Source of the DNA: Escherichia coli
GTDB taxonomy: Bacteria; Pseudomonadota; Gammaproteobacteria; Enterobacterales; Enterobacteriaceae
Strand: one strand, 5' to 3'
Length of the DNA stretch: 64,000 nucleotides
Assembly: GCF_003334785.1 (NCBI RefSeq)
Contig: NZ_QOWV01000009.1
Shown: in pieces, positions 40,461-45,558 of the stretch
Numbering within the stretch: the stretch's first letter is position 1
How the letters are laid out: every line of letters starts with the position of its first letter
Translations under genes and position numbers: made by a program
The notes under the pieces: generated by a model
Seen by the model: only the letters and a program-made list of their open reading frames with translations
Told to the model about the DNA's origin: nothing
Databases searched by the model: none

Positions 40461-40922
40461 GTCTGTATTTCCTTATCCAAAGTATGGAGAAGTTAACATT
40501 ATGTTTCACAACTTCATAGTGTCTGGAAGTATTATTTTTATGACAAAGGAAATACTTTGCGCAAATATTTTTTGTTTGATTACCAGCGAAACGTTTCTCT
40601 TATTTAAATAATTACCCACACAAAATATAGGCTTTTAATTATCAACCTTTATTATAAATAAAAGTTATGAAATATATTCTCTTCGTTAACTTATAATTAA
40701 GAGAAAAAAACTCACCGCATGGCCATTTAAGCCAGGAATAAATTAGCTTCCCGTTCATCATTTTTGTGATCTTGCGCACATCTTTGAGATAACGCACTTT
40801 CTTCACCAGTACGTTGCACGCTTTGTCAGCAGAAGATTGCAACAATCTTTCAGAAGGCCGCGAATCCCCCGTTTTGTCGTGGTAATGTATGCACTTTGTG
40901 TTAGACGGGATAGGTTTTTAAG

Positions 40923-42017
40923 ATGGAAAAACTGCGGGTAGGAATCGTTTTTGGTGGTAAATCAGCGGAACATGAAGTGTCTCTGCAATCGGCAAAAAAC
41001 ATTGTCGATGCCATTGATAAAAGTCGCTTCGACGTTGTGCTGCTGGGCATTGATAAACAAGGGCAATGGCACGTCAGCGATGCCAGCAATTATCTGCTAA
41101 ATGCAGACGATCCTGCCCATATTGCGTTGCGCCCTTCGGCGACCAGCCTTGCGCAGGTGCCAGGTAAACATGAGCATCAGCTTATCGACGCGCAAAACGG
41201 TCAGCCGTTGCCGACGGTGGATGTCATTTTCCCGATTGTCCACGGTACGCTGGGCGAAGATGGTTCCTTGCAGGGAATGCTGCGGGTCGCCAATTTACCG
41301 TTTGTAGGTTCTGATGTTCTGGCTTCAGCAGCCTGTATGGACAAAGATGTCACCAAACGTCTGCTACGCGATGCCGGGCTGAACATTGCGCCATTTATTA
41401 CCCTGACGCGCGCCAATCGTCACAACATTAGTTTTGCCGAAGTGGAGTCTAAACTGGGGTTACCACTGTTTGTAAAACCGGCTAATCAGGGCTCTTCTGT
41501 TGGTGTCAGCAAAGTAACCAGTGAAGAACAGTACGCAATTGCCGTCGATCTGGCGTTCGAGTTCGATCATAAAGTGATCGTTGAGCAAGGGATCAAAGGT
41601 CGTGAGATCGAATGCGCAGTTCTGGGCAACGACAATCCGCAAGCCAGCACCTGTGGAGAGATCGTACTCACCAGCGATTTCTATGCCTACGACACCAAGT
41701 ACATTGACGAAGATGGCGCGAAAGTGGTAGTTCCGGCAGCCATTGCGCCAGAAATCAACGATAAGATCCGGGCGATTGCCGTTCAGGCTTATCAAACGTT
41801 GGGATGCGCAGGCATGGCGCGTGTAGACGTGTTTTTAACCCCAGAGAACGAAGTGGTGATCAACGAGATCAACACCCTGCCTGGCTTCACTAATATCAGT
41901 ATGTATCCGAAGCTGTGGCAAGCCAGCGGTCTGGGTTACACCGATCTGATCACACGTTTGATTGAACTGGCGCTGGAGCGTCACGCTGCGGATAACGCAT
42001 TGAAAACCACAATGTAA
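40923..42017 (+). CDS. ddlA: D-alanine--D-alanine ligase A
   Basis: 364-aa ATP-grasp [30 protein letters not shown]... recognised as DdlA. Confidence 0.96.
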
Positions 42018-42040
42018 TATTTTAACGCCCGATAATATTC

Positions 42041-42253
42041 TTATTGGGCGTTTTCAGTTTCTTCATCGCGACGACGAATAATCAACCCCGCCAGCCAGAA
42101 ACTAATCACCCACGTCACCAGACCGACGGCATAGGTCTGCCAACCTTTTGCTTCAAATCCCAGTAACCCCACCACGCCATTAAGAATGAATATAAGGCCA
42201 ATGGCGAACGCATAGTAGTGCCAGTCACGGCGGATTTTTACAGGCAGATTCAT
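42041..42253 (-). CDS. yaiZ: Small inner-membrane protein YaiZ
   Basis: ORF-track frame 42041-42385; start placed at MNLPVKIRRDWHYYAFAIGLIFILNGVVGLLGF... (70 aa, two predicted TM helices). Confidence 0.82.
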   Translation of the reverse strand: MNLPVKIRRDWHYYAFAIGLIFILNGVVGLLGFEAKGWQTYAVGLVTWVISFWLAGLIIRRRDEETENAQ

Positions 42254-42512
42254 GGCAGCTCCGTTAACGAAAAACAACATCCTTGCATATTCTGCAACAA
42301 CCGTCTGTGGTGTAGACAACATTTTCGTAATTGTTAATAAATTTAACTTAAGGTTGCCATTTTGTGACTCACAACGAAGATTCACGCTTCGGGAATATTC
42401 CCAACATCAATTTACCATGATTCTGATATTGACAATCTAAATGACCTGTCAGACTTGCCATAAGCCGCTGGTATCACACCAGAAGAGAAGCAGATGACTT
42501 CCGGAGGTTTTT

Positions 42513-42821
42513 ATGGCTGATTTCACCCTGTCAAAATCGCTGTTTAGCGGAAAATATCGCAATGCCTCTTCAACGCCTGGCAACATTGCCTATGCGTTGT
42601 TTGTGCTGTTTTGCTTTTGGGCTGGGGCGCAATTGCTGAACCTGTTAGTGCATGCGCCCGGCGTCTATGAGCGTTTAATGCAGGTCCAGGAAACAGGTCG
42701 CCCACGGGTGGAAATTGGTTTAGGTGTCGGCACCATTTTCGGGCTGATCCCGTTTTTAGTAGGCTGCCTCATTTTTGCAGTGGTGGCGCTATGGCTGCAC
42801 TGGCGACATCGCCGCCAGTAA
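42513..42821 (+). CDS. yaiY: Small inner-membrane protein YaiY
   Basis: 102-aa [45 protein letters not shown]... with hydrophobic helices. Confidence 0.88.
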
Positions 42822-42832
42822 GTTTTACATTG

Positions 42833-42867
42833 TCAGATGCGGCCTGAAACGCCTTATCTGGCCTGAC
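42833..42867. repeat. Degenerate REP-like palindrome between convergent yaiY and yaiW
   Basis: tcagatgcggcctgaaacgccttatctggcctgac resembles the REP consensus (gccggatgcggcgtgaacgccttatccggcc) with substitutions. Confidence 0.45.
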
Positions 42868-42879
42868 ATTCCTGTTTGA

Positions 42880-43974
42880 TCACTGTTTCATACAACGCGC
42901 CCGCCGTTCGTCTACGCGCTTCGCAAACCAGGCCGTAGTCAGGTTGCGGGTGATTTTCGGGCTTTCCAGTTGAATGCCAGGCAACATTTCGCGGGGGAGT
43001 GATTTACCCGTTTTCGTTTCGGCAAGTTGATAAACTTTCTTGTACAGCGCCGTCTCCTCAAAAGAGAAGCTGTCACCTTTCTCTAACTGACGGCGAATTT
43101 CGCTGTCGCTCATCCCCAGTTTTGCAGCCAGTTTGCGCGTTGCCAGTTCGGTTTTCCCGGGTTCTTTACTGTCGTAACGAATTAAATCACCGTCCAGTGC
43201 CAGCTTCACGCCGCTGGCCTTACTGACCGCGTTCTGAAACGCGGCATTACGGCTGGCGTACCAGCCAGCGTTAAAATCAGCAAAACGGTATATCGGTGCG
43301 CTATAACTGGCGGGATAATTCAGTAAATGGTAAGTACCAAACCACAACCCGCCGCGGCGACTGAAGACTTCCTGACGGACTGTACCGTCCATTTTCCACG
43401 GGTACCCTTTGGTATGCTGTTCGGCAAAAGCAATGCTGACCTGCATCGGCCCACCGGTGCGCACCGGATTGAGCGAACCAAACAGCGTCTGCCCCATTGG
43501 CACCATGTTGATCAGATCGTCAAAAATCGCGCTCAATTGCTTTTCTGTACGCACCGAATCTAACCGTTCGCTATAACTTTTGCCGTTTGGCGATTTGATT
43601 TTTAGCGCGGTATGAACCAGAAAAGCAGGAATGTGCATCCGTTCAGCACGACGGTCAATCTCTTGCCAGGCGATCTTGCTTAAGCCCGGAACGGCCGGAT
43701 CTGCCTGATAATTTGACTCCTGCTGCGCCACCGCCAGCACCGAGCAGACGTTTTCCAGCGTCGGTGCCAGCCCCTGACTTTCAAAGGTGGTGGCGAGATC
43801 TTTCGCCCAGGCATCGCGGTCTTTCACGCTCGCAGGCATCTTCTGCCGCACGACGCTCGCTACATCTATCGCTTTTTCGCCCTTTTTCAACGGTTGCGGA
43901 GCCTGACTACTACACCCCGCTAAAACCAGAACCGCCAACAATGACAGCGAAGATAGAGGATTGACGCGCGACAT
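42880..43974 (-). CDS. yaiW: Lipoprotein YaiW
   Basis: 364-aa ORF MSRVNPLSSLSLLAVLVLAGCSS... with lipobox (LAGC); directly downstream of sbmA. Confidence 0.9.
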   Translation of the reverse strand: MSRVNPLSSLSLLAVLVLAGCSSQAPQPLKKGEKAIDVASVVRQKMPASVKDRDAWAKDLATTFESQGLAPTLENVCSVLAVAQQESNYQADPAVPGLSKIAWQEIDRRAERMHIPAFLVHTALKIKSPNGKSYSERLDSVRTEKQLSAIFDDLINMVPMGQTLFGSLNPVRTGGPMQVSIAFAEQHTKGYPWKMDGTVRQEVFSRRGGLWFGTYHLLNYPASYSAPIYRFADFNAGWYASRNAAFQNAVSKASGVKLALDGDLIRYDSKEPGKTELATRKLAAKLGMSDSEIRRQLEKGDSFSFEETALYKKVYQLAETKTGKSLPREMLPGIQLESPKITRNLTTAWFAKRVDERRARCMKQ

Positions 43975-43986
43975 TACTTCTCCTTT

Positions 43987-45207
43987 TTAGCTCAAGGTAT
44001 GGGTTACTTCCTGAATTTTGTCACCATCCAGCTCATGTTCAAAGCTGCGCAGACGTTTGTAGATAGACATCAACTCAACCAGTGTGGTCCATGAGTTAAT
44101 CAGGTACTGGAAAGCACCGCGAACCTGACCAAAAACGTTGGTAATCTGCGTCATCAGGCCGAGCGTAATCGTACCGGCAACAATTGACGGAAACAGCAAG
44201 AACAAACCGAAAACGTTATCGACCTGCAAATAGAGAATGCGGGCGATGTTGAAATACATATAGTGAAAATAGAGGCGGAAATAGTTTTTCCGTACGGCGC
44301 TAAACAGCTCGCGTACCGTAGGCGGCGTCGCGCGCGTGGCATCGTCTTCACCATAAACCAGCTCTTTACGGTAGGCAGCCTCTACACGCTGGTTTTTAAA
44401 CTCCAGCCCCGGCAGTTTGATCCCTACCACTGCCAGCAATCCGGTCCCCATCAGCGACCAGACGATTGCGGCAATCACCAGACCATACGGAATGTGCCCG
44501 ATAATCGGCAGCTCCGGCACATGCGCGGAGAGCGTTACCAGCACCGGCAGGAAGGCGATCAACGTCATGATGGCGTTGATAAAACTGACGCCCATATTCT
44601 CCAGCGTTGAAGCAAAACGCATGGTGTCTTCCTGCACACGCTGTGCGGCCCCTTCGATATGACGCAGTTGTTGCCAGTTCGCCATGTAATATTCGTTCAT
44701 CGCTGTACGCCAGCGGAACACGTAGTGACTGACAAAGAAGTTGTTCAGCACACTGATCACCACAGCGATCAGCGCAATCCCCAGAAAGACGCCCACTTCG
44801 CGGTAAAATTGTTCGATGGTGACTTTATGCGGCGAACTTAGCGCGGTTTGAATCAGATCATAGAACGGCGCATACCAGGCGTTGACGGCGACCCCGACTT
44901 CCACCAAAAACCAGGTGACGAAGATGATCAGTGCAGTACCGAGTATTGACCAGTATTGCCAACGATGCGGGCTGTAGATAAACCAGAACAATGCAAAAAG
45001 TCCTACGCAAACAATGTAGTAAGCGTAAAAAATCAGGAAATCCAACGACCAGAAACGCGCGGCGCTAATCGGGATCTGCCCGGAAGCGCCGGTGATACGC
45101 GCCACCCAGTCACCCCCACCGGCTTGCCAGAAGATAACGGCAATCAATGCCCAAACGAAGGCCGAGAGAAAAAACGTTCCCGGCTTTGGGAAAAAAGACT
45201 TAAACAT
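43987..45207 (-). CDS. sbmA: Peptide antibiotic/peptide transporter SbmA
   Basis: ORF-track frame 43987-45213 begins at an upstream GTG; start placed at [31 protein letters not shown]... (406 aa), ABC-type transmembrane domain without an ATPase domain. Confidence 0.93.
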
Positions 45208-45558
45208 ATGCACTCCTGCTAACTTCTTATCGTTTTAACAACTGCTGTGTATTAACCGCATGACCGCTACAAAGCGTCAGCCAAATGAAACCGCCCATTG
45301 TGACCCATAGCAAGGCGCTTAGTTCGCCAGCCTGACCATAAGAATTGTTTCGACGGATTTCACAAACCAAAGATTGTTTACATAAGCGGATTAACACGCG
45401 CAGGATCACAAATGCAGGCATTGGTGAGCAGGAAAAAGATCGTGTTTACGCGCCGTTACGTTTTTAACACTATTATTGCACTAATTCGCCCTTTGCAATC
45501 TATCAATGAGTAGTATAAATACGCTCAGTTACCTTCATTCAATCTATGGACACCACCG

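Follow-up and report, generated by a model that had tools for sequence, protein, structure and literature searches.

The divergent genes yaiZ and yaiY are a known pair of Escherichia coli K-12, and our analysis indicates that they are probably two unrelated genes for small inner-membrane proteins that form separate transcription units, with yaiY under an Rcs-controlled promoter resembling that of rprA. Both genes are annotated, the membrane nature of their products has been published, and yaiY is a recognized Rcs gene, so the locus itself is already known; what is new here is the separation of the yaiZ and yaiY promoters and the block map of the latter. In the model that we favor, the genes would stand back to back by inheritance yet be transcribed separately, and each product would form a helical hairpin whose two termini are cytoplasmic. 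yaiZ would have a weak promoter that is active in unstressed cells, and yaiY would be silent in such cells until the Rcs envelope-stress phosphorelay switches it on, through direct action of RcsB on a promoter of rprA-like design.

The window analyzed is a stretch of 64,000 nucleotides from E. coli, and its sequence at this locus is 100% identical to that of E. coli K-12 relatives. The open reading frame list, the sequence, and the annotation bear out what the preliminary description had said of the pair: the divergent genes are real, lie between ddlA and yaiW-sbmA, and have the sizes, names, and orientation given there (Table 1). The RefSeq names of the 70- and 102-residue reading frames are yaiZ (b0380) and yaiY (b0379), respectively, and 259 bp (42254–42512) separate their start codons. 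Of 5426 complete E. coli genomes, 5420 contain the locus at a coverage of at least 80%. The dN/dS values of yaiZ (0.043) and yaiY (0.078) are low and near those of ddlA (0.030) and sbmA (0.060), which argues that both are real coding genes; both are under strong purifying selection. The two genes are restricted to the Enterobacteriaceae: YaiZ is carried by 156 of 100,044 species genomes, and the YaiY profile had no more than 60 matches among 1.84 billion representative proteins, with all named sources belonging to this family. We also considered a 14-nt inverted repeat around the pair (42009–42022 and 42820–42833) as the trace of a mobile cassette and dropped this reading because about one such repeat is expected by chance per 900 bp.

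Table 1. Coordinates of genes and of observed or predicted elements at the yaiZ-yaiY locus (window positions)
Feature	Position	Strand	Remarks
ddlA	40923–42017	+	Flank on the yaiZ side
ddlA intrinsic terminator hairpin	42024–42052	+	Terminator scan, inverted repeat
yaiZ (b0380) coding sequence	42041–42253	−	70 aa; ATG at 42253, stop codon ends at 42041
yaiZ Shine-Dalgarno GGAG	42259–42262	−	5 nt before the ATG; conserved footprint columns
yaiZ start sites and −10-like GAATAT/CAGAAT	42274–42294	−	−10-like element at 42287–42294
Conserved block CCACAGACG	42302–42310	−	Upstream of the yaiZ −10; footprint
CRP-like site TGTGA-N6-ACGAA	42363–42378		Footprint; centred near −91.5 relative to the predicted yaiY start
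Box 1, RcsB-type, CGGGAATATTCCCA	42390–42403	+	cCAGGA-N4-TCC in most genera
Box 2, TACCATGATTCTGA	42413–42426	+	TCTGA, on the right, matches an RcsB half-site perfectly
Predicted yaiY −35 TTGACA	42429–42434	+	75/84 sequences; 15-nt spacer to the −10
Predicted yaiY extended −10 TGtCAGACT	42447–42455	+	Conservation
Predicted yaiY start	42462	+	NC_000913.3 position 399384, minus strand; 51-nt leader; rprA alignment
Possible 5-bp hairpin CUGGU-AUCAC-ACCAG	42468–42482	+	In the yaiY leader, close to its 5′ end
yaiY Shine-Dalgarno GGAGG	42503–42507	+	5 nt before the ATG; invariant in the alignment
yaiY (b0379) coding sequence	42513–42821	+	102 aa; ATG at 42513, stop codon ends at 42821
REP-type palindromic element	42829–42866		Between convergent yaiY and yaiW
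yaiW	42880–43974	−	Flank on the yaiY side
sbmA	43987–45213	−	Beyond yaiW

YaiZ is a full-length, high-scoring member of Pfam DUF2754 (PF10953; E = 6.6e-49, residues 1–70 on model positions 1–70), and YaiY is likewise one of DUF2755 (PF10954; E = 3.2e-49, residues 1–101 on model positions 1–100); the E. coli protein is the founding sequence in both cases. The families carry no functional annotation, in agreement with the unknown function first assigned to both products. NCBIfam gave no match, and no related solved structure was found. A 114-residue form of YaiZ starting at GTG was rejected, given that the same ATG is the start in 79 of 79 orthologous loci and that the protein alignment begins there.

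Hydropathy confirmed the membrane character of both proteins, each of which has two hydrophobic helices and positive charges at both cytoplasmic ends. In YaiZ, the helices span about residues 15–33 and 41–59, flanked by Lys-6, Arg-8, and Arg-9 at the N-terminal end and by Arg-60 to Arg-62 at the C-terminal end. Published GFP localization and LacZ/PhoA fusions place YaiZ in the inner membrane with a cytoplasmic C terminus; it is thus a two-pass inner-membrane protein with both termini in the cytoplasm. The helices of YaiY cover about residues 24–46 and 69–95, or 28–46 and 75–93 in the test of helices and flanking charges, with Lys-8, Lys-14, and Arg-16 at one end and Arg-98, Arg-100, and Arg-101 at the other, suggesting the same two-pass topology with both termini in the cytoplasm. 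The AlphaFold model of YaiY has helices at 22–47, 49–59, and 66–101, at low confidence (pLDDT 64, pTM 0.34). The alignment reveals a conserved YaiY loop of about 20 residues, HAPGVxExLMQ...RP, that is predicted to be periplasmic. Homology between YaiY and YaiZ was rejected (hhalign probability 0.8%). An FWxAG motif is common to the two proteins.

The preliminary description had treated the region between the genes as one shared upstream region. Our results indicate instead that these 259 bp hold two separate promoter regions. The yaiY-proximal ∼155 bp include a self-contained conserved promoter, which is kept in the absence of yaiZ in Entomohabitans, Apirhabdus, and another relative, and the yaiZ starts sit at the opposite end. 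We mapped the published MG1655 v2 start sites onto the window: the two yaiZ starts, at 42282 and 42274 (398788 and 398796; 2 and 4 reads in the published table), precede the yaiZ ATG by 29 and 21 nt, respectively. The −10-like pattern N-A-N-T-R-T that precedes them is conserved across genera in the footprint. At the other end of yaiZ, the 3′ arm of the ddlA terminator overlaps the yaiZ stop codon, with no T-run on the yaiZ side.

Expression under envelope stress, a point on which a check had been proposed, is documented for yaiY, according to the literature one of the genes that Rcs induces most strongly. Published qRT-PCR data give a 17.9-fold increase upon RcsB overexpression, inhibition of LolCDE raised yaiY 37–50-fold, and colicin M did so by log2 values of 3.9–5.2 in a study that lists it among the Rcs genes. 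No comparable induction of yaiZ was found in the literature surveyed. In unstressed cells, the proximal yaiY start is absent from the published start-site table. A published qRT-PCR study also reported a 16.3-fold increase of yaiY upon overexpression of sigma-E (rpoE); therefore, either a second input exists or this effect is indirect. The Cappable-seq data gave no matching positions for a yaiY start, and a 2-read yaiY start placed inside the ddlA terminator by one published dataset is implausible.

A general sigma-70 promoter scan of 41900–43000 returned no matches and did not call the predicted yaiY −10, which, like the short spacer of 15 nt between TTGACA and this −10, counts against the assignment. 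Because the yaiY promoter is non-canonical, we relied on conservation instead. Alignment and analogy with known promoters suggest that it comprises two RcsB-type boxes, a −35, and an extended −10. Of the 84 sequences, 81 carry the TG.CA.A.T pattern of the putative −10, the most divergent homologues among them. The predicted −35 is absent from the three most divergent loci. In the form TCYGA, the right half of box 2 is found in 81 of 84 sequences. Its left half, TACCA, is conserved yet departs from the RcsB consensus, so another protein may bind there. Box 1 is centred 23 bp upstream of box 2. It matches 8 of the 9 specified positions of TN(G/A)GAN4TC(T/C)NA, with C where T is specified, and 65 of the 84 unique orthologous sequences have its core RGA-N4-TCY at one fixed offset, the N4 being variable. 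A strict search for the RcsB consensus misses box 1 because only 8 of 9 positions fit; it found no match in the intergenic region and 2 in the window versus 2.05 expected, i.e. the chance level. Farther upstream, the CRP-like site has a nearly invariant left half and is kept upstream of yaiY in a locus without yaiZ (L082); it may be a site for CRP.

The promoters of rprA, bdm, osmB, and ymgG share a 14-bp RcsB box with a weak −35 immediately after it, a 17-nt spacer, and a −10, and yaiY resembles these genes in its strong induction by active Rcs. At rprA, the order is TGAGACGAATCTGA, TCGACG, 17 nt, and TACTAT; box 2 of yaiY is followed by 6 nt (TATTGA), 17 nt, and the −10 hexamer CAGACT. This is the spacing found at rprA, bdm, and osmB; that of ymgG deviates by no more than 1 nt. 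In its right half (AATCTGAT), box 2 hardly differs from the rprA box. The yaiY promoter differs from this type in the left half of box 2 (TACCA versus TN(G/A)GA), in the fuller second box 23 bp upstream, and in its non-canonical CAGACT −10 with an upstream TG; its RcsB sites are predicted. At rprA, the +1 lies 7 nt after the −10, and aligning the two promoters suggests a yaiY start at the position given in Table 1. In this arrangement, the half-box would abut the −35, the extended −10 would lie downstream of it with a start near 42462, and box 1 would serve as a second, full RcsB-type site upstream. By analogy with rprA, RcsB probably binds directly at yaiY.

It is also conceivable that box 1 itself drives the Rcs promoter, with GATATT/TATTGA (42425–42432) as the −10 and a start near 42437. 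Box 1 fits the RcsB consensus better than box 2, GATATT is conserved in most genera, and the centre of the box would then fall near −41, a typical activator position. The divergent loci L088, L089, and L090 speak against it. At the 17-nt spacing of the rprA type, they have TGTCCG, TACCGA, and TACTGA, none of which resembles a −10; at a 15-nt spacing, they have GATGTC, GATACC, and GATACT, with the last-position T only in L090. All three keep TG.CA.A.T, and the box/6/17/−10 spacing of rprA, bdm, and osmB fits box 2 and not box 1. We therefore consider a promoter driven by box 1 unlikely. In that case, the TTGACA and CTGTCAGACT blocks farther downstream would be part of the leader or of another promoter.

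The strong Rcs induction of yaiY and the highly conserved, putatively periplasmic loop of its product make it a reasonable candidate for an uncharacterized envelope-stress effector. The most likely role of YaiY would be in the Rcs response, as a small membrane effector, a speculative proposal that we put forward as a tentative possibility. The polar, conserved first helix and the periplasmic loop would bind and modulate a larger inner-membrane protein, and YaiZ would act similarly but constitutively. MgrB, SafA, AcrZ, and MgtS are short hydrophobic proteins that are made under stress and exert their effect on a larger membrane protein to which they bind. YaiY resembles them in size class, membrane location, and control by a stress regulon; YaiY and YaiZ differ from them in having two helices and 102 and 70 residues, as opposed to one helix and 30–65 residues. 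The likeness of YaiY to the MgrB/AcrZ type would be a functional analogy without any family relationship. The promoter assignment provides a testable map that is conserved across the family, and the yaiY promoter could be used as a compact reporter of Rcs activity.

A further reading, in which strong Rcs-driven yaiY transcription runs antisense into sbmA-yaiW and lowers its expression, and/or YaiY is a dedicated Rcs effector or feedback element, is in our view doubtful. The terminator scan found no intrinsic terminator after yaiY, where the 58-bp gap to yaiW holds only the REP element (Rfam naRNA4, 30.3 bits, below the gathering score of 59.5), and the scan together with the repeat search gave no efficient terminator for yaiY or yaiZ. 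The published set of convergent transcriptional overlaps ("excludons") in MG1655 includes yaiW-yaiY and yaiZ-ddlA. If antisense transcription from yaiY did act in this way, two envelope-stress responses would be coupled at the RNA level. The sbmA-yaiW operon is presumably sigma-E-dependent.

We also examined whether yaiY could be a direct sigma-E gene with the invariant TCTGA as its −10, a reading that we judge improbable. The hexamer TCTGAT at 42422–42427 equals the classical sigma-E −10 of the rpoH P3 and degP promoters, and the response to rpoE overexpression described above fits such control. However, the E. coli sequence has no GGAACTT-like −35 at 15–17 nt upstream, the sole GGAA being 23 nt away, and the sequence preceding TCTGA lacks conservation among genera. 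A scan of both strands of 42200–42560 with a strict −10 pattern (GGAACTT-like −35, 15–17 nt, TCnnA) found no sigma-E promoter; the same strict −10 also misses the GAACTA-N16-TCACA that is seen by eye upstream of sbmA. An indirect effect, via envelope perturbation and Rcs, would suffice to explain the rpoE response.

The preliminary description had further suggested a link to the neighboring peptide importer SbmA. The gene order ampH-sbmA-yaiW-yaiY-yaiZ-ddlA was seen in 79 of 79 loci whose flanks were long enough, also in Klebsiella, and the neighbors are all envelope-related; together with the shared FWxAG motif, this could indicate that YaiZ and YaiY are a functional pair under shared control that modulates SbmA (or YaiW). 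Several observations make this highly improbable. yaiY occurs without yaiZ (L082, L085, and L087), without yaiW (L029, L071, L082, and L088), and without sbmA (L090), its promoter blocks being intact in these loci and present even at a 34%-identical homologue in another genomic context. The two genes also have separate promoters and unlike expression, and their products are non-homologous. Because all of the genomes are close relatives, conserved order is expected from descent, and it looks like inherited synteny; in the test of sbmA-yaiW as a module with the pair, the genes co-occurred no more than inherited gene order explains. A link to SbmA accordingly lacks support, as yaiY persists with its promoter without sbmA or yaiW and the genes are regulated differently. 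These findings indicate that yaiY and yaiZ are independent units and that neither is necessarily tied to the other or to sbmA-yaiW.

That one of the two genes encodes a type I toxin of a toxin-antitoxin system or a phage-defense component is scarcely credible: the proteins are small and hydrophobic, Rcs activation has been linked to phage resistance, and one phage-resistant isolate carried yaiY V66M, but that isolate also had an rcsC mutation that accounts for its phenotype, and the genes are core, single-copy, syntenic, and under strong purifying selection. PADLOC and PHROGs gave no match, and Rfam found no antisense or small RNA family in the region beyond the sub-threshold REP-type match.

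Finally, we inspected the yaiY leader. Its overall stability is unremarkable (z = 0.55), and RNAalifold returned no consensus structure for it. For the possible hairpin near its 5′ end, 78.9% of the cells are paired versus 68.5% in shuffles, and 17 cells are changed on both sides versus 5.9 (reached in 0 of 500 shuffles), whereas slid controls are at most 36.7% paired.

The divergent yaiZ-yaiY pair of the preliminary description stands as written, because both genes are annotated, each has a good ribosome-binding site 5 nt from its ATG (GGAG for yaiZ, GGAGG for yaiY), and each gene has an identical ATG start across 79 orthologous loci, at which the protein alignments also begin. The start codons lie 259 bp apart. 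A 114-aa GTG-start version of yaiZ was rejected, given this ATG conservation and the protein alignment. The stretch 41950-42900 is 100% identical to E. coli K-12 relatives and runs opposite to the MG1655 reference (NC_000913.3 position = 441846 - p, where p is the window position); the locus is ordinary and already known. A 14-nt imperfect inverted repeat just outside the pair (42009-42022/42820-42833) was discarded, about one being expected by chance at this size.

Features of the yaiZ-yaiY locus and its surroundings (window positions)
Feature	Position	Strand	Sequence	Remarks
iraP-ddlA gap	40461-40922			about 460 bp in Escherichia
67-aa ORF	40642-40845			AT-rich
ddlA	end at 42017			flank on yaiZ side
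ddlA terminator hairpin	42024-42052			T-run on ddlA side only
yaiZ (b0380)	42041-42253	minus		70 aa; annotated
yaiZ-side conserved block	42278-42290			alignment
yaiZ-side conserved block	42302-42310	minus	CCACAGACG	alignment
CRP-like site	42363-42378		TGTGA-N6-ACGAA
Box 1	42390-42403		CGGGAATATTCCCA	RcsB box consensus, 8/9 specified positions
Box 2	42413-42426		TACCATGATTCTGA	right half a perfect RcsB half-site
TTGACA	42429-42434			75/84 sequences
TG.CA.A.T	42447-42455			81/84 sequences
Possible leader hairpin	42468-42482			5 bp
yaiY (b0379)	42513-42821	plus		102 aa; annotated
yaiY-yaiW gap	42822-42879			REP-type element
yaiW and sbmA				flank on yaiY side
Motif upstream of sbmA	45280-45330	minus	GAACTA-N16-TCACA

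YaiZ and YaiY are full-length members of Pfam DUF2754 and DUF2755, respectively (E about 1e-49 each), and sequence comparison shows no homology between the two. Each family has a very limited distribution: relatives of YaiZ occur in 156 of 100,044 species genomes, a YaiY profile search of 1.84 billion proteins retrieved only 60 representatives, and all named sources are Enterobacteriaceae. Pairwise dN/dS values against the window (0.043 for yaiZ and 0.078 for yaiY) are comparable to those of ddlA (0.030) and sbmA (0.060), indicating strong purifying selection on both genes. By median dN across the genera compared, YaiZ (0.056) is more conserved than SbmA (0.076) and DdlA (0.110).

According to hydropathy and charge analysis, each protein is positively charged at both ends and contains two hydrophobic helices, so both termini of each are predicted to be cytoplasmic. 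For YaiZ, a model substrate for membrane insertion, published fusions agree with the membrane nature proposed earlier for the pair: a GFP fusion was membrane-localized, LacZ and PhoA fusions placed the C terminus in the cytoplasm, and insertion was independent of YidC (PMC3225971). The YaiZ periplasmic turn comprises only 7 residues. YaiY has a predicted periplasmic loop of ~20 residues with the nearly invariant motif HAPGVxExLMQ...RP, and its helix 1 carries the conserved polar residues Asn-24 and Gln-40. No solved structure was found for any relative of either protein; the AlphaFold model of YaiY (helices 22-47, 49-59, and 66-101) is of low confidence (pLDDT 64, pTM 0.34).

Expression under envelope stress is, for yaiY, largely published already. 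The gene is a recognized member of the Rcs regulon and rose 17.9-fold by qRT-PCR upon overexpression of RcsB, the regulator of this envelope-stress phosphorelay (PMC2731931), 37-50-fold with a LolCDE inhibitor (PMC5105897), and by log2 3.9-5.2 with colicin M, grouped with other Rcs genes (PMC3599342). The remaining mentions of yaiY come from screens and were neither followed up nor confirmed, and the literature found assigns neither protein a function.

Four conserved blocks lie on the yaiY side, where 84 unique sequences yielded the consensus aAtcCaGGA..AtTCc....c..AAaTTAcCAt.AtTCtGATATTGACAat..c.at.acCTGtCA.ACT. Box 1 follows the RcsB consensus TN(G/A)GAN4TC(T/C)NA (PMC7913699); across genera its specified positions are kept while N4 varies, with the core at a fixed offset in 65/84. 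The right half of box 2 reads TCYGA in 81/84, and its left half is invariant yet off-consensus. Downstream, the conserved positions of TG.CA.A.T are those that matter in an extended -10. A general promoter scan found no match in the region, nor did a strict RcsB pattern, which stayed at chance level across the window. From these sites and the comparison below, we infer with good support that RcsB controls yaiY directly through boxes 1 and 2.

Known Rcs promoters from the MG1655 record suggest which promoter is used. That of rprA reads TGAGACGAATCTGA/TCGACG/17 nt/TACTAT/6 nt/+1; bdm and osmB share this layout and ymgG does so within 1 nt. Box 2 of yaiY has exactly the rprA layout (TACCATGATTCTGA/TATTGA/17 nt/CAGACT), which places the predicted yaiY start at about 42462, so that the leader would span 51 nt. 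Use of box 1 to drive the promoter instead, with GATATT or TATTGA as the -10, appears less likely: in the related loci L088 (Mangrovibacter), L089, and L090 the candidate hexamer is not -10-like at rprA-type spacing, and at 15-nt spacing only L090 keeps the final T (GATACT), whereas all three retain the downstream extended -10. Direct control by sigma-E would fit the 16.3-fold induction of yaiY by qRT-PCR upon sigma-E overexpression (PMC2731931), but it is quite unlikely; no sigma-E-type promoter was found by a strict scan and the relevant upstream stretch is unconserved, so the sigma-E effect is probably indirect. The CRP-like site is centered ~91.5 bp upstream of the predicted start; its TGTGA half hardly varies between genera, its other half is kept as NCANA, and it is retained in L082, an Entomohabitans locus without yaiZ.

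The yaiY blocks persist in lineages without yaiZ and upstream of a 34%-identical YaiY homologue in an unrelated genomic context, and therefore belong to yaiY alone. An alignment of the intergenic region from 61 non-redundant loci also showed the two yaiZ-side blocks. Two weak yaiZ starts in the literature fall at 42282 and 42274; the conserved hexamer N-A-N-T-R-T, which is GAATAT in E. coli, lies immediately upstream of them. The supposed shared upstream region thus appears to comprise two separate promoters rather than one common control region. The strongly conserved CCACAGACG block adjoins the yaiZ -10-like hexamer on its upstream side and matches no nameable regulator site; yaiZ is also named as an OxyS target in a published list. 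In the most likely picture, yaiZ gives weak constitutive expression of a highly conserved two-helix membrane protein, and yaiY is Rcs-activated, with RcsB probably on box 2, and most likely on box 1 too, bringing RNA polymerase to a promoter that is weak, has a short spacer, and carries an extended -10.

The order ampH, sbmA, yaiW, yaiY, yaiZ, ddlA and the orientations were found in 79/79 related loci with enough flank, with an intergenic length of 221-284 bp across related loci, and the order in Klebsiella is identical. Since all these genomes are close relatives, the synteny mostly reflects descent. yaiY stands without yaiZ in L085, L087 (Apirhabdus), and L082, where the order is ddlA, yaiY, an Ail/Lom outer-membrane gene, and sbmA, without yaiW. 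L090 keeps yaiY and yaiW without sbmA, ddlA, or yaiZ; hence yaiY needs none of yaiZ, yaiW, or sbmA adjacent. yaiW is also missing from L029, L071, and L088 (which has yaiZ and yaiY), so the sbmA-yaiW pairing is itself not universal. For the suggested SbmA link we found nothing beyond adjacency, and a YaiY/YaiZ/SbmA functional module is improbable. The earlier functional interpretation holds only in part. As the leading but tentative reading, YaiY may be a small membrane Rcs effector in which the conserved helix 1 and the periplasmic loop bind a larger inner-membrane protein; a YaiY/YaiZ/SbmA module, a promoter run from box 1, direct sigma-E control, and a toxin or defense role are all rated well behind it. 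A further, rather doubtful possibility is that yaiY transcription under Rcs activation disturbs the convergent sbmA-yaiW operon, or that YaiY acts back on envelope-stress signaling. A toxin or defense role for either protein is very unlikely, with no match in PADLOC or PHROGs; NCBIfam likewise gave none.

No convincing intrinsic terminator was found for yaiY or yaiZ; a REP element lies 3' of yaiY and the back of the ddlA terminator 3' of yaiZ. Both convergent pairs, yaiY-yaiW and yaiZ-ddlA, are listed as E. coli transcriptional overlaps (PMC12288877). The yaiY-yaiW gap holds only the REP-type element (a sub-threshold naRNA4 match), and once yaiY is induced, its transcripts probably continue into yaiW in antisense. 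The ddlA terminator hairpin and the yaiZ stop codon overlap; inside this hairpin, at 42048, lies a "yaiY" start published from 2 reads, probably an artifact or processing site.

RNAalifold predicted no structure in the yaiY leader, and its stability is not unusual. Near its predicted 5' end, a possible hairpin, whose stem was read off the window sequence itself, was paired in 78.9% of cells versus 68.5% in shuffles (slid partners, at most 36.7%), with both sides changed in 17 cells versus 5.9, a value reached by 0/500 shuffles.

The motif upstream of sbmA was visible by eye and missed by a strict scan; it fits the sigma-E promoter reported for sbmA-yaiW. The 67-aa ORF, called as a hypothetical protein by the RefSeq pipeline (strain J53) and absent from the curated MG1655 record, is probably not a gene. 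In many genera outside Escherichia the iraP-ddlA gap holds an MFS transporter gene, the divergent loci of Entomohabitans, Apirhabdus, and Mangrovibacter among them, and the gap is 1.7-2.5 kb long in several further loci.
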